From Candidatus Iainarchaeum sp. (lineage in GTDB: Archaea; Iainarchaeota; Iainarchaeia; Iainarchaeales; CSSED10-239): 12,433 bases of DNA. Below are positions 1 through 12,433 of this stretch, piece by piece. Each line of letters opens with the position of its first letter. Position 1 is the stretch's first letter. The translations under genes and the position numbers were made by a program. The stretch is taken from assembly GCA_028700905.1 (NCBI GenBank), contig JAQVRT010000021.1, forward strand, positions 1-12,433, written 5' to 3'. Under the pieces are notes generated by a model. It made no database searches and was not told where the DNA came from. It worked only from the letters and a program-made list of their open reading frames with translations.

Positions 1-247
1 TATATCCTTCTTTAGTAGAAATATCTTGTTTTATATCTTCAATTATTCTTCTTTGTTCTCTTCCTTTTAATCCATCTAGTTTTTGTCTTAATGCTCTTTG
101 AGATTCATTAGAAGGAAGTTTCTCTCTTTGTTGTTGTAATACTAATTCATTTTGCCTTGCTAATTCTTCTTGCACAGCTATTTGGGATTTATAATCTTGA
201 ACCTTTGCTCTTTCAGTTTGTAATGTTTGCCTTGCTTGTTCTGTCAT
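1..247 (-). CDS. Hypothetical coiled-coil protein (C-terminus outside window)
   Basis: Not in the ORF track because it runs off the window edge. The minus frame is open from nt 1 to the ATG at 247-245. ATGA overlap with the stop of ORF 244..420. Hand translation MTEQARQTLQTERAKVQDYKSQIAVQEELARQNELVLQQQREKLPSNESQRALRQKLDGLKGREQRRIIEDIKQDISTKEGY... is Gln/Glu/Arg-rich with a heptad-like pattern. Confidence 0.5.
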   Translation of the reverse strand, partial: MTEQARQTLQTERAKVQDYKSQIAVQEELARQNELVLQQQREKLPSNESQRALRQKLDGLKGREQRRIIEDIKQDISTKEGY

Positions 248-441: not shown

Positions 442-458
442 TTTATATATTTGATGGT
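442..458 (-). promoter_or_regulatory. Promoter P1: ACCATCAA-a-TATATAAA (BRE/operator + TATA box)
   Basis: The reverse complement of 442-458 reads ACCATCAAATATATAAA. The TATA centre is ~26 nt upstream of ATG 420, giving a leaderless transcript. Same 17-nt module as P2-P4. The 10-mer TTACTCGTAA (plus coordinates 428-437) lies between TATA and ATG. Confidence 0.6.
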
Positions 459-700
459 TACCAATCCAAATCTTTATTTAACCATTTTTTTTCTTCTTCT
501 ACTTCTTTTTCTATATTATCTTCATTTAAAGTTATATCAAATCCATACTCTTTTAATTTTTTGATATTTCTTTTATTATCTATATTCTTACCCCTTTCTA
601 ATTTGAGTTGAGTTATTGTTTGTTTGAAATTATCCTCTACTCCGATTGTTAAATACTTTGCCTTTCTTCCATAATTAATCCAATTAGTTCTCTTTAACAT
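458..700 (-). CDS. Hypothetical 80-aa protein
   Basis: ORF track. The start ATG (700-698) overlaps the stop of the upstream ORF (TAATG). GGAGGT lies ~14 nt upstream. Lys/Glu-rich, no recognisable motif. Confidence 0.6.
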   Translation of the reverse strand: MLKRTNWINYGRKAKYLTIGVEDNFKQTITQLKLERGKNIDNKRNIKKLKEYGFDITLNEDNIEKEVEEEKKWLNKDLDW

Positions 701-1248
701 TATCCAAATAAACTACCTCCCATAAAATAATTTATACCAAATAATCCTGCACCTATTGCAATTATCCAAATTATTATATTTCCTCCTTTGGATTTTACTT
801 TTATGGTATCAGATAACATTTTAGCCATAGTATATTTTTGACCATATGTTTCATTTCTTTCTTCTTCTGGAATAATTTTTAATGGATTTAGTTTCCAAGA
901 TGGTTGAATTATTATTGGAAATTTTCCTTGCCAAAAAAGTATTTCTCTTCCATCTGTTGAGTGATAAATTCCTTCTTTATCTTTAAAAGAACTTCCAACT
1001 ACCTTTTGTTTTTCTGCTGTAATGTTTCTATTTTCATCTATTCTTAATATCCCAATCCAACCTTTCTTTAGTTTTCTTTTTCTAACCTTAGCTTTTCTTG
1101 GAATCTTTATATTTTTTGTTTTAATCTCTCCATTAATTACTTGTTTTTTGAATTCAGTAAGTTCTTTTACTTGTTCCACTAAAGGTTTTTCTTTTACTTC
1201 TTTTTGTTCTATTTTTTCTTGGGTATTATTCAAAGTTATTTCTTTCAT
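700..1248 (-). CDS. Hypothetical protein with C-terminal transmembrane anchor (182 aa)
   Basis: ORF track. Perfect SD, AAAGGAGGATTAAAATG. Basic stretch PRKAKVRKRKLKKG. C-terminal hydrophobic helix NIIIWIIAIGAGLFGINYFMGG. Confidence 0.7.
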   Translation of the reverse strand: MKEITLNNTQEKIEQKEVKEKPLVEQVKELTEFKKQVINGEIKTKNIKIPRKAKVRKRKLKKGWIGILRIDENRNITAEKQKVVGSSFKDKEGIYHSTDGREILFWQGKFPIIIQPSWKLNPLKIIPEEERNETYGQKYTMAKMLSDTIKVKSKGGNIIIWIIAIGAGLFGINYFMGGSLFG

Positions 1249-1261
1249 TTTAATCCTCCTT

Positions 1262-1654
1262 TCAATTTTCTTCTGGTTCTTTCTTTTGGAAGAACCCTGT
1301 TTTTTTCTTTTTTCTAGGAGTCATATCTGATAATTCTTTCTTTTGTGTTACTGAAAGTTTTACCAGTAGTCCATCCTTAGATAATGAAGTTGATGTATGT
1401 ATTTCTGATAATTTTTTAAAATATGATGCCCAACCTTTATCTTCCCATATATCTTCAGCAAATAATTCTAATTCTTTTATGCTTCTAACTGGTAAATTTG
1501 GAGTTCCTAATTCTTCTTTATCTAAGTTACCAACTTTTGTAGTATCTGGATTTTGAATAATCTTTGTAAAAAAACTATGAACATTTCCTTTTCCTTCTGC
1601 GAATTGTCTTAACATTTCTTTCGCTTCTTCTTCTGAAAAATTATCTTCTGTCAT
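1262..1654 (-). CDS. Hypothetical 130-aa protein
   Basis: ORF track. The ATG overlaps the stop of upstream ORF 1651..1818 (ATGA). Soluble, with a basic C-terminal tail (PRKKKKTGFFQKKEPEEN). Confidence 0.7.
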   Translation of the reverse strand: MTEDNFSEEEAKEMLRQFAEGKGNVHSFFTKIIQNPDTTKVGNLDKEELGTPNLPVRSIKELELFAEDIWEDKGWASYFKKLSEIHTSTSLSKDGLLVKLSVTQKKELSDMTPRKKKKTGFFQKKEPEEN

Positions 1655-1818
1655 TCTGTAATATCCATATATTCTTCTGTATCCTCTTTTTTATCTATTA
1701 TCATATCTTTTATATCTCCTATAACTTCTCCAACTGTTTGTCTACTAACCTTTGCCCATACTACCAAAATAATTACAACAACAATTAAAATTCCTATTAA
1801 TGAATCCCAGTTTACCAT
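1651..1818 (-). CDS. Hypothetical 55-aa single-pass membrane protein
   Basis: Below the track cutoff. Hand translation: MVNWDSLIGILIVVVIILVVWAKVSRQTVGEVIGDIKDMIIDKKEDTEEYMDITE. TAATG overlap with the upstream ORF at 1818 and ATGA overlap with the downstream ORF at 1651-1654. One clear TM helix. Confidence 0.55.
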   Translation of the reverse strand: MVNWDSLIGILIVVVIILVVWAKVSRQTVGEVIGDIKDMIIDKKEDTEEYMDITE

Positions 1819-2147
1819 TAGTTTTTGAATTTTTGTGGTCTAAATCCTACTTTTTGAAAATAAAGAGGTTTCCACCCAAATTTAGTTAATTCTTTTTTTA
1901 CATAATCTAACTTAATTAGTTCTGATTCCATTTTTTTTAGATGTTCTTTTAATCTTTCGATTGCTTTTTTTCTCCATTCAGAATCATATTCTAAATCTGG
2001 ATGTTCTTTTATAACTCCGCCTTTGTTTAGTTTTAATCCTTCTATGGTAGTAATTGTTTGTGTATATGGGTCACGAAACATTAAATTATTTCCATCTATA
2101 ACTACTTCTGATTGTTCTCCCCCTAATTGATAAACACTTAAAATCAT
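1818..2147 (-). CDS. Hypothetical 109-aa protein
   Basis: ORF track. Sits in the coupled gene chain. No recognisable motif. Confidence 0.7.
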   Translation of the reverse strand: MILSVYQLGGEQSEVVIDGNNLMFRDPYTQTITTIEGLKLNKGGVIKEHPDLEYDSEWRKKAIERLKEHLKKMESELIKLDYVKKELTKFGWKPLYFQKVGFRPQKFKN

Positions 2148-2148
2148 T

Positions 2149-2298
2149 TTAACCTATCTTTTTTTCCATCTCTTTTACTTTGTTAAGTAAATCTAAGACT
2201 ACTTTTTCAAGATAAAAGATTTCTCCTGCTGGGTCTTGAAAAGCCAACATTTCTCCAGTTGGAACTTTTACTAATTCCCAATTTTTTTCTTCTGTCAT
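2149..2298 (-). CDS. Hypothetical 49-aa protein
   Basis: Below the track cutoff. Hand translation: MTEEKNWELVKVPTGEMLAFQDPAGEIFYLEKVVLDLLNKVKEMEKKIG. Preceded by the same 21-nt SD cassette (AAAATTGAAAGGAGGATTAAAATG) as ORF 700..1248. ATGA overlap with the upstream ORF. Confidence 0.55.
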   Translation of the reverse strand: MTEEKNWELVKVPTGEMLAFQDPAGEIFYLEKVVLDLLNKVKEMEKKIG

Positions 2299-2651
2299 TT
2301 TAATCCTCCTTTCAATTTTTTTAATTTTTCTTCATATCTCATTAAAGTATATTTTTTTCTTATTTGTTTTGTTACTTCTTTTATTTCTTTTTGTTCTTTA
2401 GTTTCTTCAAATAAAAATGAACTTAAAAGTAAAGGAAATATGTAAATAAAAACCATATCAATAACCATTAAATAAACATTAAGAACAACTCCAAATTCTC
2501 CAACATCATATTTTATAAGACTTTCTAAAAAATCTATTACAATCTTTTCATAAATTCCACTTTGGATAAAGATTGTTAAATTGTATATATAAACAATTAT
2601 TAAACTAATTATTAATACCTTCATCCAAGTTACTTTAAATTTTATTTCCAT
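2295..2651 (-). CDS. Hypothetical multi-pass membrane protein (118 aa from ATG 2651)
   Basis: The track ORF 2295..2702 overlaps the upstream gene by 50 nt. The internal ATG at 2651 lies 1 nt after the upstream stop (2653-2655) and gives MEIKFKVTWMKVLIISLIIVYIYNLTIFIQ... with 2-3 hydrophobic helices and a basic C-terminal tail. Confidence 0.6.
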   Translation of the reverse strand: MEIKFKVTWMKVLIISLIIVYIYNLTIFIQSGIYEKIVIDFLESLIKYDVGEFGVVLNVYLMVIDMVFIYIFPLLLSSFLFEETKEQKEIKEVTKQIRKKYTLMRYEEKLKKLKGGLK

Positions 2652-2652
2652 T

Positions 2653-3333
2653 TTATAAATCTTGATATAAATCATATCCTGCGGATAAGGAAAATAATGC
2701 ACCTATTCCTATTGTAAGATATGAAAAGTAATTAGTTAATGTATCTTGATATATTATGACTCCATTATTTATCATATACACTCCTAAAAAAACCATTGCC
2801 ATTCCTCCTAAGATTGTTACAGGAGCATTTCCATTAAATAATCCTAAGAAAGTTATTGCATATATTAATAAAATTATAAATATAAAAAATACTATGTTTT
2901 CATTTCCATCTTTACCACTAGGAGTAACTTCAAAACTCATAGTTTCAATAGAATAAACTCCTCTTTTATCTCCTGCAACTGTGTAAGTATAATCTCCAAG
3001 TAAAGTTGAATTACAAAAGTTATAAGTGAAATCTTGATTTGTTTTAATCATATCTAAATTCATTGTTTCAATAGTTCCGTTTGGATATTTAATTGCTGTT
3101 AGATTAACATAAGAACAATCATCACAAGTTTGATATAAATCAAAACAAGTATTTTGTTTGAATGTTCCTAAATCTGTTGTAGAAAAAGAAGACGTTGTAT
3201 CTCCGAAGTTTAGTGATGATATGAAAGAAAATGAAAAACTAAATAAGAAAAGGAGTATGAATGGGGAAATAACTTTCATTATGATAAGTCTACCCCTCTC
3301 CTCCTTTTTATTTTTTAAATGTATTGTTTGCAT
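2653..3333 (-). CDS. Secreted / membrane-anchored Cys-rich glycoprotein-like protein (candidate virion spike or adhesin)
   Basis: SD AAGGAGTGAATAATG at 3333 (alternative start 3279, MKVISPF...). N-terminal signal-like segment ISPFILLFLFSFSFSFISS. The ectodomain has 4 Cys and three N-x-S/T sequons (NLT, NGT, NST). Three C-terminal hydrophobic helices. Directly follows the capsid-protein candidate. Confidence 0.7.
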   Translation of the reverse strand: MQTIHLKNKKEERGRLIIMKVISPFILLFLFSFSFSFISSLNFGDTTSSFSTTDLGTFKQNTCFDLYQTCDDCSYVNLTAIKYPNGTIETMNLDMIKTNQDFTYNFCNSTLLGDYTYTVAGDKRGVYSIETMSFEVTPSGKDGNENIVFFIFIILLIYAITFLGLFNGNAPVTILGGMAMVFLGVYMINNGVIIYQDTLTNYFSYLTIGIGALFSLSAGYDLYQDL

Positions 3334-3347
3334 TATTCACTCCTTAA

Positions 3348-3566
3348 TTACATCAATCCAGAGTTTCTTAGACCCTGTGCAGCAATACCGATTGCTGTTG
3401 ATGCGATTGAAAGATTGTAGAATAAAGTTGTCAATCCAAGGATAGTAGAACTTGCCCCTGTGATGTTAGTGTTTGCTTGTGCTCCAGCAACTTCATTAGC
3501 AACAGTTGGTGCAAGTGTTACTCCTACAAGAATAACAATGAATCCGCCAATTATATTTCCTAGCAT
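3348..3566 (-). CDS. Putative major capsid protein of the spindle-shaped-virus (SSV1 VP1-like) type, 72 aa
   Basis: Sequence: MLGNIIGGFIVILVGVTLAPTVANEVAGAQANTNITGASSTILGLTTLFYNLSIASTAIGIAAQGLRNSGLM. Two hydrophobic helices are joined by an Ala/Asn/Thr linker with sequons NIT and NLS. The segment TGASSTILGLTTLFYNLS parallels, from memory, TGTNATLLNLVPLFYIL of SSV1 VP1. First gene of the operon, downstream of promoter P4. Confidence 0.65.
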   Translation of the reverse strand: MLGNIIGGFIVILVGVTLAPTVANEVAGAQANTNITGASSTILGLTTLFYNLSIASTAIGIAAQGLRNSGLM

Positions 3567-3631
3567 TTTGTTTTTTTATTTTTTATCCCCCTTTTACTTG
3601 ATTGAATTATGAAAAATCTAATATCTTTGTA

Positions 3632-3648
3632 TTTAAATAAGTGATGGT
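3632..3648 (-). promoter_or_regulatory. Promoter P4: ACCATCAC-t-TATTTAAA for the capsid operon
   Basis: The reverse complement of 3632-3648 reads ACCATCACTTATTTAAA. The predicted TSS is near 3609, giving a ~43-nt leader that contains a GGGGG motif (plus-strand ccccc at 3588-3592). TGATGGT (3642-3648) forms an inverted repeat with ACCATCA (3673-3679) of P2. Confidence 0.5.
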
Positions 3649-3672
3649 AAGTTTTTACTCGTAAGTAGTTAA

Positions 3673-3689
3673 ACCATCAAGTATATAAA
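3673..3689 (+). promoter_or_regulatory. Promoter P2: ACCATCAA-g-TATATAAA for the RHH-ATPase operon
   Basis: The 17-nt module ends 23 nt before ATG 3713, giving a leaderless or near-leaderless transcript. TTACTCGTAA (3655-3664) lies between the divergent P4 and P2 modules. Confidence 0.6.
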
Positions 3690-3712
3690 GAAATTAAATT
3701 ATTCCTTAATTT

Positions 3713-3844
3713 ATGGATAATGAAAAAAAAGAGATAAGATTTTTATTAGATGAAAAAAAATATGAAGAATTAAAAGAAGAAGCCAAAAACTTAGATATTC
3801 CCCTCGCTAGTTATATAAAAAGTAAAATTTTATTAAAAAAATAA
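3713..3844 (+). CDS. Ribbon-helix-helix (CopG/Arc/MetJ-like) DNA-binding protein, 43 aa
   Basis: Below the track cutoff. Hand translation: MDNEKKEIRFLLDEKKYEELKEEAKNLDIPLASYIKSKILLKK. The pattern is beta-strand (IRFLLD), helix (YEELKEEAKNL), helix (PLASYIKSKIL), typical of RHH. The stop at 3842-3844 is 1 nt before the next ATG. Confidence 0.6.
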   Translation: MDNEKKEIRFLLDEKKYEELKEEAKNLDIPLASYIKSKILLKK

Positions 3845-3845
3845 A

Positions 3846-4289
3846 ATGGAAGAAGATACTAAACTATCAAAGTTCTCATCTGGATTAAATATTCTTATGA
3901 GGGTAGACCAATTATGGAAAAATTGTCACGATTTTAAAAGAAGAGGACTTTATCAAAAGTGGAATGATGAATTAGATTCAGTTTGGTTAGAATTATCAAG
4001 AGATTTAAGTGAAAAACAATATAATGGTTCAAAAGATAAAGAGAATACTTCTGAAGAAGAAAAAGAAGGATATAAAAAATTATTTGAAGATTTTGAAAAA
4101 AGATTAAAATATTCTGGAAGATTTTATGATTCTGGTTCTTTAGGATTTTTACCTCCAACAAAAGAAATGCTTGAAGATAGAGATAAACAATATAAGATTT
4201 TAATGGAAAAACAATTATTCTTAGCTAGATTAGAAAATAAATTAGGAAAAGGAACTAGTTGGGAAGATGAAGAAGATGAGGATTTCTAA
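3846..4289 (+). CDS. Hypothetical acidic protein (147 aa)
   Basis: ORF track. Glu/Asp/Lys-rich with an acidic tail WEDEEDEDF. Tightly packed between the RHH gene and the NTPase gene. Confidence 0.7.
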   Translation: MEEDTKLSKFSSGLNILMRVDQLWKNCHDFKRRGLYQKWNDELDSVWLELSRDLSEKQYNGSKDKENTSEEEKEGYKKLFEDFEKRLKYSGRFYDSGSLGFLPPTKEMLEDRDKQYKILMEKQLFLARLENKLGKGTSWEDEEDEDF

Positions 4290-4291
4290 AT

Positions 4292-5257
4292 ATGGCTATT
4301 GTAGAAATTAATGATGAGAAATTTGTAAGAAAATATAATAAACCAATTACTTATTTTTTAGAAGATTGGATAAAACATAGATTTGATACTAAAATTATTC
4401 CAGAACTTTCAAAAGAAGATAAAGACTGTGTAATTTGTATTGATGGAAAGGAAGGAAGTGGTAAAAGTTGGTTAGGATTGCAATGGGGAAAGTATGTAGA
4501 CCCTACTTTAAATCTTTCTAGAGTTGTTTTTACGCCTGAAGAGTTTAGAGAAGCAATTTATAAAGCAAAACAAAAGCAATGTATTGTTTTTGATGAAGCA
4601 TTTACAGGTTTTAGTTCTCGTTCTGCTCTTTCTTCTGTAAATAGAGTGCTAACTAGCTTGATGATGCAGATAAGACAAAAGAATTTGTTTGTAATTATTA
4701 TAATGCCAACATTTTTTTTACTTGATAAATACCTTTCTCTGTTTAGAGCAAGGGTTTTAGTTCATGTTTACGAAAATAAAGGACGCAGAGGATTCTTTAG
4801 GGTATATTCAAAGGATAAAAAACGAGCATTGATTATGGATAAGGGTTCTAGAACTTATTCTTATAAGATTAAGAGTAAAAAGAAGGGAAGATTCTATGGA
4901 GTTTTTGCTTTAGGGGATAAAGATGAAGAGAAATTATATAGAAAAAAGAAGATGAAGGCACTAGAAAAGGCAGAAACTAATCCTATGACTACAAAAGGAG
5001 TTAAATATATGGAACAAAGGGATATTTCTATATGGATTTTGAGAAAAGAACTTAAAATGTCCTATAAAAAGATGGAAGAACTACTTACACACTATGGTTT
5101 TGATATATCTTATCAACAAATAAGGAACATTTGCTTCAAATTAGGGGATAAAGATAGAGAAATTGACCTAATTGATGGAGAAATACCAGATAAAGGCATT
5201 AAAACTCCTGAAATTGAGGATTTTGAAGAAGATTCTGATGAAAATGAAGAAGATTAG
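4292..5257 (+). CDS. P-loop NTPase with C-terminal HTH-like region and acidic tail (321 aa)
   Basis: Walker A GKEGSGKS (aa 52-59), Walker B CIVFDEA, and a hydrophobic strand LFVIIIMPT (sensor-like). The C-terminus has an HTH-like MSYKKMEELLTHYGFDISYQQIRNICFKL and the tail EDFEEDSDENEED. The sub-family (morphogenesis ATPase of pleomorphic/spindle viruses, Zot-like, or replication initiator) cannot be resolved by eye. Confidence 0.85.
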   Translation: MAIVEINDEKFVRKYNKPITYFLEDWIKHRFDTKIIPELSKEDKDCVICIDGKEGSGKSWLGLQWGKYVDPTLNLSRVVFTPEEFREAIYKAKQKQCIVFDEAFTGFSSRSALSSVNRVLTSLMMQIRQKNLFVIIIMPTFFLLDKYLSLFRARVLVHVYENKGRRGFFRVYSKDKKRALIMDKGSRTYSYKIKSKKKGRFYGVFALGDKDEEKLYRKKKMKALEKAETNPMTTKGVKYMEQRDISIWILRKELKMSYKKMEELLTHYGFDISYQQIRNICFKLGDKDREIDLIDGEIPDKGIKTPEIEDFEEDSDENEED

Positions 5258-6097: not shown

Positions 6098-6301
6098 ATG
6101 AAAACACAAACAAACGAAAATAATTTAATAGAAGAATTGTTTAAATTCTTTGAATGGATTACGGAAAATAAACCAACAAAAGAAGAAAAAATTTTAATTG
6201 CAGACTATGTTATGTTAGGTTATGGTTTTAAAATGGTTTATGAATCAGAAAATATATTTAAAGAAATTCTGGAAGAATTGAAAATTGAGGTTTTAAAATG
6301 A
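6098..6301 (+). CDS. Small protein, paralog family member A (67 aa; MKTQTNE N-terminus, YGFKMVYE...EVLK C-terminus)
   Basis: ORF track. SD AAGGGGTTAAATACTAAAATG. Shares its first 23 nt with ORF 6605 and 17 nt with ORF 6741. The C-terminal 70 nt are homologous to the end of ORF 6741..6875. ATGA overlap with the next ORF. Confidence 0.7.
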   Translation: MKTQTNENNLIEELFKFFEWITENKPTKEEKILIADYVMLGYGFKMVYESENIFKEILEELKIEVLK

Positions 6302-6426
6302 AAATAAGAATTTATTTTTTAGATTGTTTTGATAAAGAACATAAAAGAATTATAAGAATAGATAAAAAAGAATTAAAAAACCTAAAAAATGAAAATGGTT
6401 TTTTAAGTTATGAGGTTTTAAAATGA
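6298..6426 (+). CDS. Hypothetical 42-aa protein
   Basis: Below the cutoff. Hand translation: MKIRIYFLDCFDKEHKRIIRIDKKELKNLKNENGFLSYEVLK. ATGA overlaps at both ends. Ends with the shared junction GAGGTTTTAAAATGA. Confidence 0.5.
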   Translation: MKIRIYFLDCFDKEHKRIIRIDKKELKNLKNENGFLSYEVLK

Positions 6427-6608
6427 CAAATACAAACGAACTTACAAAAAAAGAATTAAAAGAAGAAGAAAGACACGATAAAATGTTTTTATGTGAATGT
6501 GGAGAATATACGAATAAACCAAGATTTAGTTTAAATCCTTTTGGAGAATGTAAGGTTTGTTTTAAAAGTAGTTTATATCTTAAAAGAATGAAGGATTTTT
6601 TAAAATGA
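6423..6608 (+). CDS. Small Zn-ribbon-like protein (61 aa, CxC...CxxC)
   Basis: ORF track. Four Cys in CECGEYTNKPRFSLNPFGECKVC. ATGA overlaps at both ends. Confidence 0.65.
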   Translation: MTNTNELTKKELKEEERHDKMFLCECGEYTNKPRFSLNPFGECKVCFKSSLYLKRMKDFLK

Positions 6609-6739
6609 AAACACAAACAAACGAAAAGGAAACAATAAAAGATTTAAGAACAGAATGTTTTATTTTTTGCTGTAATAAAGGTTTATATAATTTAACTAAA
6701 AAAGAATTAAAAGAGTTATTAATAAAATTAAAAAGATAA
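6605..6739 (+). CDS. Small protein, paralog family member C (44 aa; MKTQTNE N-terminus, different C-terminus)
   Basis: Below the cutoff. Hand translation: MKTQTNEKETIKDLRTECFIFCCNKGLYNLTKKELKELLIKLKR. The first 23 nt are identical to ORF 6098. Confidence 0.5.
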   Translation: MKTQTNEKETIKDLRTECFIFCCNKGLYNLTKKELKELLIKLKR

Positions 6740-6740
6740 A

Positions 6741-6875
6741 ATGAAAACACAAACAAAAGAAGACCAAACAAATAAAGAAAGTTATGGTTTTAAAATGGTA
6801 TATAAGAAAGAGATAAATAAAGAGAATGAATTAAACGAGATTCTGAAAGAATTAAATATAGAGGTTTTAAAGTGA
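6741..6875 (+). CDS. Small protein, paralog family member D (44 aa; N- and C-terminal modules of A without the middle)
   Basis: Below the cutoff. Hand translation: MKTQTKEDQTNKESYGFKMVYKKEINKENELNEILKELNIEVLK. Begins 1 nt after the previous stop. Ends in GAGGTTTTAAAGTGA. Confidence 0.5.
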   Translation: MKTQTKEDQTNKESYGFKMVYKKEINKENELNEILKELNIEVLK

Positions 6876-7015
6876 TAAAAGTTTATAAGTGTGAAGTATT
6901 AAAAGAAATACCTTACCATAAAAAAGGAGAATTGATAAACCTTTTTGTTTATGATTACGAAAGATTTAAAGAAAATTTAAAAATAATTAATATAATTGAA
7001 AGGGGGTTTAAATAA
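6872..7015 (+). CDS. Hypothetical 47-aa protein with GTG start
   Basis: Hand translation: (M/V)IKVYKCEVLKEIPYHKKGELINLFVYDYERFKENLKIINIIERGFK. The GTGA overlap follows the same GAGGTTTTAAA spacing as the ATGA junctions upstream. There is no in-frame ATG. Confidence 0.4.
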   Translation: MIKVYKCEVLKEIPYHKKGELINLFVYDYERFKENLKIINIIERGFK

Positions 7016-7016
7016 A

Positions 7017-7520
7017 ATGGATAAATTAAAAGTAATTGAATATTTAAAACATTTAAATGAATTTGAATATATCAAAGTAGAAGGAACAAATAAAAAAAGA
7101 TTAATCTTTAAAAATAGAGATGAGATTTTTAATTTATTTGGTAGTGAATCAAAAGAGGTATTAAGTCCTTTTAATGATTATACTTATAAATGGTTAAATT
7201 CTTTTTTATATCAAGTTATAGATTTATTAGGTTATCAAGATTTTGATAATTTTGAAGAATTAAACGACGAAATAAACGACAATTTAATTTATGAATGGAT
7301 AGATTCAGAAACGGATATTTATACAAGTGATTTAACGCAGTGGTTAGCAGATAATAACACTAATAAATATTATTTAGAAGAAGCTATAAAAGAATATCCA
7401 CAAGCAGAGAATCATATTCAATTGGCCCAGTATAAAGCTATTGAAGAATTATACCAAAATGCTTTAAATATCTTAATTGAAGATTTAAAAAATCAATTTG
7501 AATCAGTAGAAGCAGAATAA
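7017..7520 (+). CDS. Strongly acidic hypothetical protein (167 aa from ATG 7017)
   Basis: The track ORF opens at TTG 6996. ATG 7017 is preferred because it is preceded by GAAAGGGGGTTTAAATAAAATG and follows the stop of the previous ORF (7015). By hand count there are 35 Asp/Glu and 15 Lys/Arg, and the last ~110 aa contain almost no basic residues. Confidence 0.7.
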   Translation: MDKLKVIEYLKHLNEFEYIKVEGTNKKRLIFKNRDEIFNLFGSESKEVLSPFNDYTYKWLNSFLYQVIDLLGYQDFDNFEELNDEINDNLIYEWIDSETDIYTSDLTQWLADNNTNKYYLEEAIKEYPQAENHIQLAQYKAIEELYQNALNILIEDLKNQFESVEAE

Positions 7521-7553
7521 ATTTTTATATTTTTTTAATTAAAAGAGGGTTTT

Positions 7554-7574
7554 GCGTTTGACCATATCAAACGC
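7554..7574 (+). terminator. Perfect 8-bp hairpin GCGTTTGA-ccata-TCAAACGC after ORF 7017..7520
   Basis: Seen directly. Followed by tttatatt, and a T7 run lies just upstream at 7531-7537. GC-containing stem in an AT-rich context. Confidence 0.45.
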
Positions 7575-7602
7575 TTTATATTAAATAGAAATAAAAACAA
7601 AA

Positions 7603-7749
7603 ATGAAAGAAGAAAAAGTAATAAAAGAAAAATTCATTAGAAAAGAAAGTAACAGAATGAGTTTAATTTTGTATAAAAAGAAATGGATTTATTTAACTAA
7701 TAAACAAAAAAATAAAGTTAATAATGAAATATGGAAATTGGGGGATTAA
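7603..7749 (+). CDS. Hypothetical basic 48-aa protein
   Basis: Below the cutoff. Hand translation: MKEEKVIKEKFIRKESNRMSLILYKKKWIYLTNKQKNKVNNEIWKLGD. Fills the gap between 7520 and 7763. No clear SD. Confidence 0.35.
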   Translation: MKEEKVIKEKFIRKESNRMSLILYKKKWIYLTNKQKNKVNNEIWKLGD

Positions 7750-7762
7750 GTATAATTAAAAA

Positions 7763-8377
7763 ATGTATAAAACAAAAATAGAACAAACACCTTTATTTAA
7801 AGGAACAATAGAAGAATATTTAAAAAAAAGTTTAGAAGGAACAGAAGAAAAAGATATTTGTAGGGGTTGGGATTTTTTAAAAGAGAATCTTACAGAAGAA
7901 TTAAAAGGTATTTTATTAAATGAATCTTATTTAAAAATTGTTTATAATAGTGAAAATTCTAAATATATTATAAATGCCTTTAAACTTAATCTTACAGAAG
8001 AATTAAAAAAACAATTAGGTAGTTTTATTTATGTTTGGAAACATATTAAACAGGAATTAGATAAAAAGCAAGAAGAAGATAAAATAAAAATAGAATTACT
8101 TAAAAGGGGTTTTATAGAACAAAATGTTTATTCCTTAAATGAAGAAGAAAATATTAAAATAAATAATACTTTAAAAGAATTAAATGGTTTAAAGGTTTTT
8201 TGTTTTATGGAAATTTCTAAAATTGGTTTAATGGGTAGTTTTGATAAAAAAGAAGAATTAGAAGGTACTTTAAAATATAGTGAATATCAAAAAAGTTTAA
8301 TGTTATTACCTAAAAGAAGCAGAACAAAAGGTTTTATTATTAGAAAAAAATTTTATTATAAAGTTGTAAGGGGGTAA
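7763..8377 (+). CDS. Hypothetical 204-aa protein
   Basis: ORF track. Lys/Glu-rich with a repeated LTEELK motif (twice). No recognisable catalytic motif. Confidence 0.7.
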   Translation: MYKTKIEQTPLFKGTIEEYLKKSLEGTEEKDICRGWDFLKENLTEELKGILLNESYLKIVYNSENSKYIINAFKLNLTEELKKQLGSFIYVWKHIKQELDKKQEEDKIKIELLKRGFIEQNVYSLNEEENIKINNTLKELNGLKVFCFMEISKIGLMGSFDKKEELEGTLKYSEYQKSLMLLPKRSRTKGFIIRKKFYYKVVRG

Positions 8378-8385
8378 ATAAGAAA

Positions 8386-8568
8386 ATGAATAGACAAGAA
8401 CAAAAAGAGTTTAATTTATTAAAAAAAGAGAATAACGATTTAAGACAAGAGCTAAAACTTTATTTATTTAATTTGGCTATACCTGAAAGAGATATAAACC
8501 ACATTTTTTTAAAAATTAATGGTTTAATAGAAAACGAAATTAAACAAGAAACATATACAAATCTTTAA
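8386..8568 (+). CDS. Hypothetical 60-aa coiled-coil-like protein
   Basis: ORF track. SD TAAGGGGGTAAATAAGAAAATG. Confidence 0.6.
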   Translation: MNRQEQKEFNLLKKENNDLRQELKLYLFNLAIPERDINHIFLKINGLIENEIKQETYTNL

Positions 8569-8640
8569 TTTAAACGGGTTTAAGGAGTCGGTTAAAAGAT
8601 AGGATTAAAATTTTTTTAGTCGTTATACTCCTTAAATCAT

Positions 8641-8673
8641 AGGATAGGGATTTAAATCCCTATCCTTTTTTTT
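8641..8673 (+). terminator. Perfect 26-nt palindrome AGGATAGGGATTTAAATCCCTATCCT followed by a T-run (terminator and/or operator)
   Basis: 8641-8666 is self-complementary over all 26 nt, and the T-run extends to 8673. It lies between ORF 8386..8568 and ORF 8677..9009. A second 10-bp pairing, TTTAAGGAGT (8579-8588) with ACTCCTTAAA (8627-8636), lies just upstream. Confidence 0.5.
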
Positions 8674-8676
8674 ATA

Positions 8677-9009
8677 ATGAAAGCAAAACAATATTATACG
8701 GAAAACGAAAAAAAAATAAAATCTTTAAAAATTGGAAATAAAACTTATTTTGTTTATTTAGTAAATGTTTTAAAAGTAGATAATAAAAAATTTTATGGGT
8801 TTATAGATTATAAAAGAAGAAGTATTTATTTATTAAAAGATAAAAATATTAATGAAACTTTAAACCATGAAATAACCCACGCTTTTATTTATGAAATTTA
8901 TTTAAAATCTAAGAATCAAAAAAATACTTTTAATAAATTAAAGAGTAATGAATTTTTTATAAACTCTTTATCTTTTTTAATTGAACAAAATTTTAAAAGA
9001 AAATTCTAG
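8677..9009 (+). CDS. Small HExxH zinc-metallopeptidase-like protein (110 aa)
   Basis: The HEITH motif sits in the context FYGFIDYKRRSIYLLKDKNINETLNHEITHAFIY. The layout G-x(n)-I-x-L ... HExxH resembles SprT-like / ImmA-IrrE-like minimal metallopeptidases. No third ligand could be assigned by eye. Confidence 0.6.
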   Translation: MKAKQYYTENEKKIKSLKIGNKTYFVYLVNVLKVDNKKFYGFIDYKRRSIYLLKDKNINETLNHEITHAFIYEIYLKSKNQKNTFNKLKSNEFFINSLSFLIEQNFKRKF

Positions 9010-9074: not shown

Positions 9075-9095
9075 TTCTAATGCCTTGATTTTAAA

Positions 9096-9169
9096 ATCTG
9101 GGTGGTGTAATGGTCAGCATTTTGCCCTCATGAGGCAAAGGTTAGTAGGTTCAAATCCTCTCCCAGATA
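9096..9169 (+). tRNA. tRNA-like gene, anticodon CAU (Met or Ile2 type), non-canonical details, no encoded CCA
   Basis: Hand fold. Acceptor ATCTGGG (9096-9102) pairs with CCCAGAT (9162-9168), giving A1:U72. U8 is present. D-stem GTGT/GCAT has two G.U pairs, and the D-loop is AATGGTCA (G18 G19). Anticodon stem TTGCC/GGCAA, loop CTCATGA (CAU at 9129-9131, G at position 37). The variable region is 6 nt. T-arm GTAGG-TTCAAAT-CCTCT has one U-C mismatch. Discriminator A9169. Confidence 0.6.
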
Positions 9170-9200
9170 TTCAAATGCCTAGATTAAGTTAAATGCCTTT

Positions 9201-9217
9201 ACCATCAAATATAAAAA
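9201..9217 (+). promoter_or_regulatory. Promoter P3: ACCATCAA-a-TATAAAAA for the basic 73-aa ORF
   Basis: The 17-nt module ends 21 nt before ATG 9239, the same geometry as P1 and P2 (leaderless). Confidence 0.55.
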
Positions 9218-9238
9218 ACCTTAATGTCTTGATTTCTT

Positions 9239-9460
9239 ATGAGTTTATTTGAAAGAGAGTTGGAAAGGGAAAGAAGTATTATTGGATTCAAAAATAAAAG
9301 GAGAAGTGTATATACTAGGAAAAGACAAACAGGAACTTCTAATAAAAAAAGAGATGAATCAAGAGAATCAAGACCTCCCGGAAAAAGAATTAGTAAATTT
9401 GGTAATGAATATTATGAATATAGAAAGAATCGTTCTGATATAACTGGTTCTAAAATTTAA
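9239..9460 (+). CDS. Hypothetical highly basic Arg/Lys/Ser-rich 73-aa protein (leaderless)
   Basis: The ATG is placed exactly as at P1 and P2 relative to promoter module P3. MSLFERELERERSIIGFKNKRRSVYTRKRQTGTSNKKRDESRESRPPGKRISKFGNEYYEYRKNRSDITGSKI. A second frame (9249..9443, TTG start) is also open, so the coding frame is not certain. Confidence 0.4.
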   Translation: MSLFERELERERSIIGFKNKRRSVYTRKRQTGTSNKKRDESRESRPPGKRISKFGNEYYEYRKNRSDITGSKI

Positions 9461-9469
9461 ATGCCTAGA

Positions 9470-10425: not shown

Positions 10426-10740
10426 TTATTTATTTTTCTTTTGATAGCGTTTAGCACACTCTAATTGTCTTTTCTTGAATTCTGGGTCTAAACTATATCT
10501 ATTTTTATGATAAATTCTTTGGTATTCTTTTCTTTTATCAAAATATAATTCTTTCTTTTCATCTGGAAGATTGGTATACCATTTCTTTTGATATTCTTTG
10601 AATCTTCCTTTGAAATCTTCGTTTGTATGCCAGTCTATTGTTGTAAGACAAACATTAAACATTTTAGCTAAGTCTTTTCTTTTCTTTCCTTGTTTTCTTA
10701 ATTCTTTTAGTTCAATTATTTGTTCTTTTGTTAGTTTCAT
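10426..10740 (-). CDS. HTH DNA-binding protein (104 aa)
   Basis: LTKEQIIELKELRKQGKKRKDLAKMFNVCLTTIDWH is a classic N-terminal helix-turn-helix of the resolvase-HTH / small-terminase type. Basic C-terminus. Confidence 0.65.
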   Translation of the reverse strand: MKLTKEQIIELKELRKQGKKRKDLAKMFNVCLTTIDWHTNEDFKGRFKEYQKKWYTNLPDEKKELYFDKRKEYQRIYHKNRYSLDPEFKKRQLECAKRYQKKNK

Positions 10741-10850: not shown

Positions 10851-11068
10851 ATTAATTTTGCCTCCCTTAACGATTGAGCAATTATTCTTAAGGCAATATT
10901 TGAGATTTCAACTTGAATCATTATATTTAAAAAATCCTTCATATCTTGAGTAAATTTTAAATAATATCCCGCCTCTAAATAACCAAATTGGTATCTTCTA
11001 TTAAGGTATTGTTCTTGAACCTCTTGATTATAATTCCAATAGTCGTGTCTAGTCTTTCTTGTTTTCAT
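10847..11068 (-). CDS. Hypothetical 73-aa protein
   Basis: ORF track. ATGA overlap with the recombinase stop (11065-11068). Confidence 0.6.
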   Translation of the reverse strand: MKTRKTRHDYWNYNQEVQEQYLNRRYQFGYLEAGYYLKFTQDMKDFLNIMIQVEISNIALRIIAQSLREAKLI

Positions 11069-11745
11069 TTTTCCACCTCTTTGTTCATAAATGGGGTATT
11101 TTCTATTGGTTCATTTACTTCTAGTTTATTTAAGGTATTTTCTCTCTCGTTTTTATGAACATTTATGATTTGACTTATTTTACCTATTGAAAGATTTGTC
11201 TTTTCACTTATTTGTCTATAACTTAATCCCTGATTATACCAATCTAAAATAACTTTAATTTTGTTTGTATGTGTTTTAGGTCTTCCCCATTTCTTTCCTT
11301 TATGATTCTTAAATGCAATTTTTACCCTTTCAGATTTTCTTTGACTTTCCATTTCAGCAATACTTCCTATTAAACCTAATAAGAACTCTTGAATTGTTTT
11401 TCCTAGACTTCCATCTATATTTATTGCTTCAAGCCATGCTTCTTTAACACTATGTAGTTTTGTTCCATAATTTCTTAATATTACTACATCTTCTAGAAGA
11501 GTATCTCTATTTCTCACCCATCTATCTATTGCCCATACTACAACTGCTTGTATTTCCCCTTTACGAGCCATCTCCTTTACTTTTTCGTAGTTTGGTCTGT
11601 TTATGTCTTTAAACCCTGAAAGTCGTTCTAGGAATACGTCTATTACTTCATATCCCCTATTCCTTGCGAACTCTAAGCACTCTTTCTTTTGGTTCTCTGG
11701 TTCTTGTTCTTCTGTTGAAACTCTAAGATAAATAACACATTTCAT
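11065..11745 (-). CDS. Small serine recombinase (resolvase/invertase family) with C-terminal HTH
   Basis: N-terminal VIYLRVSTEEQ (catalytic Ser10), then RPNYEKV, AIDRWVRN, IAEMESQRKSERVKIAF and WGRPK. C-terminal HTH GLSYRQISEKTNLSIGKISQI. At 226 aa it is the small (not large integrase) type. Confidence 0.9.
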   Translation of the reverse strand: MKCVIYLRVSTEEQEPENQKKECLEFARNRGYEVIDVFLERLSGFKDINRPNYEKVKEMARKGEIQAVVVWAIDRWVRNRDTLLEDVVILRNYGTKLHSVKEAWLEAINIDGSLGKTIQEFLLGLIGSIAEMESQRKSERVKIAFKNHKGKKWGRPKTHTNKIKVILDWYNQGLSYRQISEKTNLSIGKISQIINVHKNERENTLNKLEVNEPIENTPFMNKEVEK

Positions 11746-11990
11746 TTTAAAACTCTCTTAAAAAAATCTCCTATATTTTCTCCAGATGGAACATTTATTT
11801 CAAAGGATAAAATCTCATTATTTTTTGGATTAGAAATACTACCTAAATCTAAAGGAGTCTTTTCTTCTTTCCATCTTCCATAGTATCTTATTTCTCCATT
11901 TGGAAGTTTTGTTTGACCTATTTTCCTAAAAGTTCTTAATGTTCCTATTTCTATTTCTTTAATCTCTCTCATATTCCTTGAATCTTTCAT
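11742..11990 (-). CDS. Hypothetical 82-aa protein (start uncertain; alternative ATG at 11972)
   Basis: ORF track. ATGA overlap with the recombinase start. The 5' end overlaps the HNH gene by 32 nt (14 nt if ATG 11972 is used). Confidence 0.55.
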   Translation of the reverse strand: MKDSRNMREIKEIEIGTLRTFRKIGQTKLPNGEIRYYGRWKEEKTPLDLGSISNPKNNEILSFEINVPSGENIGDFFKRVLK

Positions 11991-12291
11991 TTATTTGTTT
12001 AATTATTGGTTGGGTCATTCCAAATTGTCTAATTTTATTATGAAATTTTGCGTGTTCCTTTTGGGATTTGAATAACATTAAATTTTCTATCCTATTATCA
12101 GTTTTAATTCCGTTTATATGGTGGATTGTTTCTCCTTTGTTTAAAGTTCTTCTTATCTTTTCTTCCATTACAAGAACATGCTCTGGAATCCATCCAATAC
12201 CTACTTTAACAAAAAGATAACCATGTGCTTTTCTTTTTAATACTCCATCTTGGACTATGTCTTTTTTATGTTTAATTATTTCGGTTATCAT
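11959..12291 (-). CDS. HNH homing-type endonuclease (110 aa)
   Basis: EHVLVMEEKIRRTLNKGETIHHINGIKTDNRIENLMLFKSQKEHAKFH matches the H-N-H layout (HH...N...N...H) of the HNH_3-type phage or free-standing endonucleases. Confidence 0.85.
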   Translation of the reverse strand: MITEIIKHKKDIVQDGVLKRKAHGYLFVKVGIGWIPEHVLVMEEKIRRTLNKGETIHHINGIKTDNRIENLMLFKSQKEHAKFHNKIRQFGMTQPIIKQINERFKEYERD

Positions 12292-12433
12292 TTCAAAAAT
12301 ACTTTTCCACTTCTTTTATAATCAATTATCTTTTTATGTTCAAGGTAATTTAACATCTCACAAAGTTTTATATGATTTGGTCTATCTGAAAAGACATTCT
12401 TCCAAGATTTTTGATATAATTCTTCTGCTATTT
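12288..12433 (-). CDS. Partial ORF (C-terminal 47 aa), winged-helix-like
   Basis: Not in the track because it runs off the window edge. ...IAEELYQKSWKNVFSDRPNHIKLCEMLNYLEHKKIIDYKRSGKVFLK. Its TGA overlaps the HNH ATG (ATGA at 12288-12291). Confidence 0.45.
   Translation of the reverse strand, partial: IAEELYQKSWKNVFSDRPNHIKLCEMLNYLEHKKIIDYKRSGKVFLK

Follow-up and report, generated by a model that had tools for sequence, protein, structure and literature searches.

The DNA analysed here (the window) comprises 12,433 nucleotides of contig JAQVRT010000021.1, assigned to Candidatus Iainarchaeum sp., and is very AT-rich, as the first-pass annotation of the sequence had stated (GC content 25.5%). 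At 3348..3566 on the minus strand lies an open reading frame (ORF) that runs from ATG to stop and encodes a product of 72 amino acids (MLGNIIGGFIVILVGVTLAPTVANEVAGAQANTNITGASSTILGLTTLFYNLSIASTAIGIAAQGLRNSGLM); the operon that it opens is divergent from the genes for a ribbon-helix-helix regulator, a 147-residue protein and an ATPase. We conclude with high confidence that this ORF encodes the major capsid protein (MCP) of a spindle-shaped, fusellovirus-like archaeal virus and that the window is a 12.4-kb fragment of its genome.

Homology and conservation of the capsid protein

An SSV1 VP1-like capsid protein had been proposed from the letters of the sequence, together with an alignment to the VP1 core; database searches supported the proposal and reproduced the alignment. 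Among 38,880 PHROG families, the two best matches of the MCP were phrog_11172 (E 1.2e-6) and phrog_5402 (E 4.8e-3), both labelled ‘virion structural protein’; the former is the family of SSV1 VP1, which scores 1.9e-73 there, and the latter that of SSV1 VP3 (9.2e-42). In a BLASTP comparison the MCP is 37% identical to SSV1 VP1 over 51 amino acids (E 3e-9), with NITGASSTILGLTTLFY aligned to QVTGTNATLLNLVPLFY, and a profile of 29 MCP homologues, searched against 177,635 distinct PDB sequences (E up to 10), returned SSV19 VP1 as its sole match (7xdi_A, E 4.5e-7). Against the MCP profile, the real SSV1 VP1 scored 30.6 bits, far above the maxima of 10.9 bits for 2,000 full shuffles and 13.1 bits for 2,000 shuffles that kept the hydrophobic segments in place, so that the match cannot be put down to hydrophobic composition alone; His1 VP21 reached 11.5 bits. 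The MCP had no Pfam match, and holin, pilin and bacterial phage membrane families, the competing identities named beforehand, yielded nothing significant in the Pfam, PHROG and NCBIfam scans. A tblastn search of the MCP against 50,697 phage and archaeal-virus records gave no match, SSV1 (present in the collection) included, and is uninformative, the query being short and low-complexity filtering being on. Judged from its sequence, the MCP is a genuine homologue of fusellovirus VP1, and close to its gene lies a further hallmark of spindle viruses, an ATPase of the B251 or His1 ORF16 type.

The protein is strongly hydrophobic at residues ~4–20 (11-residue Kyte–Doolittle mean up to 2.97), has an Ala/Asn/Thr-rich linker at residues 24–37 and carries two sequons (N34-I-T and N51-L-S) and two charged residues only, E25 and R67. 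An AlphaFold2 model built on a 29-sequence alignment (mean predicted local distance difference test score 88.6) places helices at residues 2–31 and 35–68, and the predicted fold is a hydrophobic helix-turn-helix hairpin. All 114 of the 114 MCP homologues that have a GLTxLF motif carry an N-x-S/T within the 14 residues before it. In SSV19 VP1 the turn is described as facing outward (PMC9351363), and the hairpin predicted here, with its conserved sequon, agrees with that description.

Conservation of the protein is extreme. A search of 5.8 billion clustered proteins with the MCP gave 691 clusters (E ≤ 0.01), and the top 120 are 78–99% identical to it; 1.84 billion representatives, searched exhaustively with the profile, yielded 279 clusters at 50% identity (E ≤ 0.001), and the exact 72-residue sequence is indexed in 234 blocks of an assembly collection. 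Among the related loci (numbered here with the prefix L), six other contigs (L002–L007) encode the identical 72 amino acids with 35–53 of the 219 nucleotides changed (16–24%), nearly all at third codon positions. In the same genomes, MCPs that are 100% identical accompany ATPases of 35–58% identity and other structural proteins of 28–61% identity. These comparisons indicate that the ORF is a real gene under extreme purifying selection and the most constrained gene of its virus family. The almost absolute conservation across the 72 residues hints that each of them takes part in lattice contacts.

In some relatives the MCP occurs as a tandem pair of paralogues (L017, 9783–10240; L030, 9989–10493), reminiscent of SSV1 with its VP1 and VP3; a single copy is present in the window.

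Gene organization of the window

The features of the window are given below in order of position; homologue counts are numbers of related loci, and TM denotes transmembrane.

2..247, minus strand: coiled-coil protein, first 82 codons, cut at the window edge; homologues have 362–832 amino acids
244..420, minus strand: module protein, 58 amino acids; homologues in 5 loci
458..700, minus strand: module protein, 80 amino acids; homologues in 9 loci
700..1248, minus strand: conserved protein with a C-terminal TM anchor, 182 amino acids; homologues in 20 loci
1262..1654, minus strand: conserved module protein, 130 amino acids; homologues in 22 loci
1651..1818, minus strand: single-TM protein, 55 amino acids; homologues in 13 loci
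1818..2147, minus strand: conserved soluble protein of the morphogenetic module, 109 amino acids; homologues in 25 loci, no significant Pfam or PHROG match
2149..2298, minus strand: soluble protein, 49 amino acids; homologues in 3 loci
2295..2702, minus strand: poorly conserved two-TM protein, 135 amino acids; homologue in 1 locus only
2653..3333, minus strand: predicted virion membrane glycoprotein, 226 amino acids; signal-like N-terminus, Cys-containing ectodomain (4 Cys), 3 sequons, C-terminal TM segments
3348..3566, minus strand: MCP candidate of the SSV1 VP1 type, 72 amino acids; two-helix hairpin without propeptide
3567..3712, no strand: divergent intergenic region between the capsid and regulator/ATPase operons; A/T-rich TATA-like boxes TTTAAATA and TATATAAA read from the sequence
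3713..3844, plus strand: ribbon-helix-helix regulator, 43 amino acids; phrog_3180 (Arc-like) E 2.8e-4, Pfam CopG_antitoxin and RHH_3 below cut-off
3846..4289, plus strand: conserved ATPase partner, 147 amino acids; homologues in 28 loci, every time adjoining the ATPase
4292..5257, plus strand: P-loop ATPase of the spindle-virus B251 or ‘DnaA-like’ type, 321 amino acids; phrog_5484 E 1.3e-6, homologues in 33 loci
9096..9169, plus strand: tRNA-Met (CAU) inside the element; found by ARAGORN, Rfam RF00005 53.7 bits, A1:U72 acceptor end
9239..9460, plus strand: very basic conserved protein, 73 amino acids with 22 Lys and Arg; homologues in 17 loci, motif PGKRISKxGxxYWExRxNRSD
10426..10740, minus strand: helix-turn-helix protein with a resolvase-type HTH_7 domain, 104 amino acids; Pfam HTH_7 E 8.4e-5, narrowly missing the cut-off, homologues in 9 loci
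11065..11745, minus strand: small serine recombinase of the resolvase/invertase type, 226 amino acids; Pfam Resolvase E 4.7e-29, phrog_125 E 8.9e-38, homologues in 9 loci
11959..12291, minus strand: HNH endonuclease, 110 amino acids; Pfam HNH_3 E 1.8e-9, phrog_10730 E 4.9e-15
12288..12431, minus strand: gene cut at the window edge, last 47 codons; homologue of 203 amino acids in L033

The MCP gene is the first of ten minus-strand ORFs that run from 3566 down to 244, separated by gaps of at most 37 nucleotides or overlapping, and besides the second ORF four members carry TM segments; the predicted operon of a capsid gene followed by a signal-peptide glycoprotein and small membrane proteins is thus present. 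The 226-residue glycoprotein has homologues in 22 related loci, every time inside the capsid operon, and in relatives large, variable, sequon-rich proteins of 420–1,370 amino acids lie between its gene and that of the MCP or replace it. The structural operon as a whole is syntenic in more than 20 loci, where it runs on into proteins of 360–1,370 amino acids. The intergenic region upstream of the MCP gene presumably holds promoters for both directions.

The family matched by the ATPase, phrog_5484, is that of SSV1 B251 (which scores 5.2e-101 there), and the sole tblastn match of the ATPase among the 50,697 phage and archaeal-virus records was the ATPase of the Haloferax lemon-shaped virus LSV-48N (30% identity over 115 amino acids, E 4e-9). 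Linkage of MCP and ATPase is kept in 33 of the 36 related loci, and spindle viruses are described as having a morphogenetic module in which the genes for the MCP and an AAA+ ATPase adjoin (Zhou et al. 2025, bioRxiv 10.1101/2025.02.15.638363). The 147-residue ATPase partner had no significant pairwise BLAST similarity to His1 ORF18.

In L017 (contig CAYMES010000008.1 from a Woesearchaeota bin), the ATPase gene at 6582–8772 is split exactly in the Walker A motif (junctions DGEEG/CLFEDT and SHN/SGKST) by an intein (Pfam Intein_splicing E 2.9e-13) with a Vsr/DUF559-type endonuclease.

The A1:U72 acceptor end of the tRNA-Met is characteristic of archaeal and eukaryotic initiator tRNAs. We considered whether this gene marks a junction with host DNA and rejected that idea, because virus-family genes flank it on both sides and because its arrangement with the basic ORF recurs in two IMG/VR relatives (L032 and L035). 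The 73-residue basic protein has no Pfam, PHROG or NCBIfam match and might, speculatively, be a DNA-binding partner or a virion-core protein. Five plus-strand copies of AATGCCTTGA, allowing at most one mismatch, cluster at 9079–9469 around the tRNA-Met and this ORF. The whole window contains seven copies against 0.82 expected, a number reached in 0 of 200 shuffles; some copies stand between a TATA-like box (TTTATAAA or ATATAAAA) and the start of the tRNA or ORF, and both motif and placement are conserved in L028, L032 and L035. The motif could be a promoter-proximal element, an iteron set or a recombination site. The serine recombinase may serve integration or the resolution of multimers.

Three small paralogous ORFs (starting at 6098, 6605 and 6741) begin with MKTQTNE or MKTQTKE, and E[IL]LKEL.IEVLK forms the end of two. 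Their stretch of the window (6098–6875) is its most AT-rich (~21% GC), and none of the related loci compared holds a homologue, so this stretch looks like a fast-evolving accessory region. A 110-residue protein encoded at 8677–9009 carries a HEITH motif, with a sub-threshold Pfam SprT-like match (E 3.9e-3, 17.5 bits versus a cut-off of 25.6) and a match to phrog_1233 (E 8.9e-12); none of the related loci has a homologue.

Host, virion and extent of the genome

Several observations weigh against assigning the locus to a spindle-shaped virus of DPANN archaea. Helix 2 of the MCP (residues ~38–63) is only moderately hydrophobic (Kyte–Doolittle 0.8–1.8), and helix 1 alone qualifies as a classic TM segment (19-residue window, threshold 1.6); the initial description, two hydrophobic helices joined by a sequon-bearing linker, is nevertheless correct and needed only the minus strand to be added. 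Foldseek comparison of the AlphaFold2 model with PDB and BFVD returned nothing at E ≤ 0.001, the best matches being generic helical hairpins, a null that is uninformative because the fold of a short 72-residue helical hairpin is trivially small and beyond the resolution of the method. Pairwise BLAST of the window ATPase against SSV1 B251 or His1 ORF16 was not significant, and only the profile and the LSV-48N match connect them. The large tail or adhesin genes are missing from the window. The virus is known here from its genes alone, from which we infer both virion morphology and host, and the host assignment draws mainly on binning. A scan of GTDB species representatives (15 loci) found relatives not only in DPANN bins; one locus lay in a Thermoplasmatales bin, one in a Methanofastidiosia bin and four in bacterial bins, relatives in Clostridia, Bacilli or Omnitrophota among them.

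The same scan recovered relatives in Woesearchaeota metagenome-assembled genomes (MAGs; five loci), in archaeon BMS3Abin17 (two loci), in a Nanoarchaeota MAG, in an unclassified archaeon MAG and in the 648-kb ‘archaeon’ chromosome CP070794.1 (one locus each). BMS3Abin17, from deep-sea sulfide deposits, has been treated as a Pacearchaeota genome (PMC11537232); CP070794.1, deposited as a complete chromosome, carries the complete module at the start of the record; and the exact window MCP is GenBank MDD4049865.1 of ‘Candidatus ainarchaeum sp.’. The bins come from sediment, subsurface and sulfide deposits. The most probable host is a member of DPANN (Woese-, Pace- or Iainarchaeota), a group that had been among those guessed at from base composition and that fits the MAG bins holding the relatives. 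A correct capsid call combined with a different host, such as a methanogen, a Thermoplasmatota archaeon or an Asgard archaeon of the same anoxic habitats, is unlikely yet deserves weight, since the binning of viral contigs by composition and coverage is weak host evidence and the Thermoplasmatales and Methanofastidiosia bins each hold a relative; against it, the majority of bins are DPANN and come from independent studies and habitats, CP070794.1 has one copy in an archaeal chromosome of a size typical of DPANN, and a GC content of 25% is consistent with a DPANN host.

The 40-kb Woesearchaeota-bin contig L017 showed no host genes within the 20 kb examined. On JALNZI010000007.1 (58 kb, ‘Omnitrophota’ bin; L027 and L028), MCP-like matches lie near both ends; this contig could represent two elements, a concatemer or a mis-assembly, and its bacterial bin is probably a binning artefact.

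The same type of hydrophobic alpha-hairpin builds rod-shaped or bacilliform archaeal virions, and the authors of Nipumfusiviridae had to weigh the alternative that arises from this (PMC10866085), namely that a true VP1 homologue forms rods or pleomorphic particles in place of spindles. Here we consider it improbable: the similarity of the MCP is specific to fusellovirus VP1 and VP3 and weaker to His1 VP21, all of them from spindle formers, and the linked ATPase is of the spindle-virus type.

For the spindle-shaped virion favoured here, analogy with SSV19 and SSV1 (PMC9351363, PMC5748691) suggests that the hydrophobic helices of neighbouring MCP hairpins would pack side by side, giving multi-start helical strands and, from these, a malleable spindle-shaped shell. 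On the outside of this shell would lie the turn with N34-I-T, N-glycosylated by the host, while both termini would point toward the DNA. The tail or adhesin end may consist of the membrane proteins encoded downstream and of the large proteins beyond the window edge, and virions may leave by budding, without lysis. The MCP is made without a cleavable N-terminal propeptide and would therefore need no maturation protease; having only one basic residue, it is probably not itself DNA-neutralising.

The first-pass annotation had taken the whole window for a virus genome. Its viral nature stands; its completeness does not, both ends cutting genes. At the left end, the truncated gene is a homologue of a 362–832-residue protein, next to which relatives have a further large gene (883 amino acids in L020, 995 in L017), and at the right end only the 47 last codons remain of the gene with the 203-residue homologue in L033. 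When the end of the window is joined to its start, one continuous minus-strand ORF of 130 codons results, and small circular satellites are known for spindle viruses. The window could on these grounds be a complete 12.4-kb circular mini-genome, deleted or satellite-like, that kept the MCP, lost the large tail proteins and had its end ORFs fused in frame. We reject this as very improbable, because the halves of the junction ORF match different, longer protein families and because the window has no terminal repeat; moreover, a chance in-frame join has a probability of 1 in 3, and all syntenic relatives run on into large genes. The window is a fragment of a larger virus genome. Searches for the contig of origin recovered, for the exact ATPase, a Logan contig of 1.8 kb only, and scans of IMG/VR and of metagenomes of the Joint Genome Institute (JGI) for exact 43-mers gave no match.

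Scarcely credible is the explanation that the element is bacterial and the ORF codes for a commonplace small membrane protein, either a phage holin or part of a xanthine/uracil permease, for which the ‘xanthine/uracil permease’ label on cluster members in JGI gene calls, the weak TIGR03173 (pbuX) match (E 4.2e-4) and the bacterial bins of some relatives could be cited, but that match reaches 19.2 bits against a curated cut-off of 414.15 and covers 58 of 407 profile positions, holin and pilin families do not match, the ORF is complete at 72 amino acids and kept at that length in hundreds of contigs, its neighbours are spindle-virus genes and the tRNA-Met is of the archaeal/eukaryotic initiator type. 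We reject the permease identity itself as spurious, the JGI name tracing to this sub-threshold match. At NCBI the protein is a ‘hypothetical protein’ (MDD4049865.1, GBE19328.1), and public annotation of the MCP family is thus absent or wrong.

Relation to known spindle-shaped viruses

Sequence homology of the MCP to VP1 of SSV1 and SSV19 is significant from helix 1 through the turn into the first part of helix 2 (GxFIxILxGxxLxP...TGxxxTxLxLxxLFY), and the protein equals mature VP1 in length; the predicted alpha-hairpin, the sequon at the turn and the B251-type ATPase in the genome are further likenesses. SSV1 VP1 is a precursor with an essential N-terminal propeptide that is cleaved at a conserved Glu (PMC5748691). 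In contrast to this 144-residue ORF, the window MCP has no propeptide and its start aligns to residue 75–76, ~4 residues inside the mature N-terminus. Its N-terminus is not Arg-rich as in SSV19 VP1; the whole protein has a single basic residue, and it ends in GLRNSGLM where SSV VP1 proteins have the AYKIYKD type. Unlike the SSVs with their tyrosine integrase, the window has a serine recombinase as its sole recombinase, although the relative L002 has a Phage_integrase gene. No homologues of VP4 (end filament or tailspike), C131 (nozzle) or B210 (adaptor) were found by PHROG or Pfam among the proteins of the window and four large proteins of relatives, the window ending where the large genes begin. 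Fuselloviridae infect Sulfolobales at high temperature, whereas the present virus combines 25% GC with presumed mesophilic DPANN hosts. Lacking the propeptide, possessing a serine recombinase and differing in host and base composition, it does not belong to Fuselloviridae in the strict sense.

In layout the window closely resembles His1 (Halspiviridae), whose MCP, VP21, has 73 amino acids and no propeptide and whose VP21 gene is divergent from genes for proteins of 43 amino acids, 145 amino acids and a 308-residue ‘DnaA-like’ ATPase, in sizes and order nearly as in the window. The similarity to VP21 itself is limited to helix 1 (~11 bits), and the neighbouring proteins are not similar by BLAST. 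No protein-primed PolB turned up in the window or, in 12 related contigs, among the genes with Pfam labels that lie up to 10 kb on either side of the MCP; terminal inverted repeats were likewise not found, either in the window or in the relatives' flanks.

Among metagenomic lineages, Nipumfusiviridae (NYMAG-47 and relatives; PMC10866085) are likewise mesophilic putative spindle viruses, with genomes of 27–38 kb, a hairpin MCP, an ATPase, ribbon-helix-helix and helix-turn-helix proteins and a methyltransferase. Their MCP is ~89 amino acids long with a longer turn and finds SSV19 VP1 at an HHpred probability of 75%, and their proposed host is Nitrosopumilaceae (PMC10866085). We rejected Nipumfusiviridae as the home family, given these differences in MCP length, turn and proposed host and a score of ~2 bits against the MCP-family profile for the hairpin ORF picked by inspection in one member genome. 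LSV-48N resembles the window in its ATPase and in having its ATPase block divergent from the structural cluster, and differs in its haloarchaeal host and in showing no MCP similarity in the tblastn search, which was uninformative.

Two putative nanohaloarchaeal spindle viruses, DNSV-1 and DNSV-2 (Zhou et al. 2025, bioRxiv 10.1101/2025.02.15.638363), share with the present virus a DPANN host, a module of hairpin MCP and AAA+ ATPase, a large adhesin gene and an integrase, in genomes of ~20 kb; compared by description only, they differ in their hypersaline, high-salt-adapted hosts and in a shared tyrosine integrase.

DPANN archaea make up a large share of archaeal diversity and have very few known viruses. 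The set of Wu, Liu and Ni reportedly includes spindle-shaped viruses. These authors report 97 viruses and mobile elements in seven named virus groups (Nat Microbiol 9:3362, 2024). The idea of a new, largely undescribed lineage accordingly needs qualification: with the exact MCP in 234 blocks and 279 clusters in its family, the lineage is not rare, and DPANN spindle viruses were reported in 2024–2025. It is possibly a new family within this known kind and may overlap with the groups of Wu et al. and Zhou et al. The data place the window in a virus family that occurs widely in metagenomes, has links to the tiny DPANN archaea and goes unrecognised in public annotation. We propose more tentatively, as a reading that falls somewhat short of an even chance, a family-level, globally abundant and formally undescribed lineage of fusellovirus-like viruses of non-halophilic DPANN (Woese-, Pace- and Iainarchaeota), with the frozen, propeptide-less 72-residue MCP as its hallmark.

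If this holds, few known viral capsid proteins would be as constrained as the MCP, which could serve directly as a marker in surveys of DPANN viruses. Correct naming of its gene, recognised by standard profiles, would let thousands of contigs be re-annotated as spindle-virus genomes. The SSV1-type capsid, known from hot acid springs, would also reach into AT-rich hosts of cold and anoxic settings, adding to the case for ancient spindle viruses in Archaea.

The occurrence of short propeptide-less and long N-extended forms in one family bears on why SSV1 VP1 needs a propeptide. Many distant members of the MCP family are 130–146 amino acids long (for example, P0134, P0137, P0145, P0151, P0164, P0172 and P0182); in them, a TM helix at the N-terminus precedes a conserved Y-E-x-I-R-D-K-L-T-x-R-E motif, after which a linker that is acidic or rich in Gly leads into the MCP domain. 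Their N-terminal extension of ~60 amino acids is propeptide-like and analogous to the SSV1 VP1 precursor, without sequence similarity to it.

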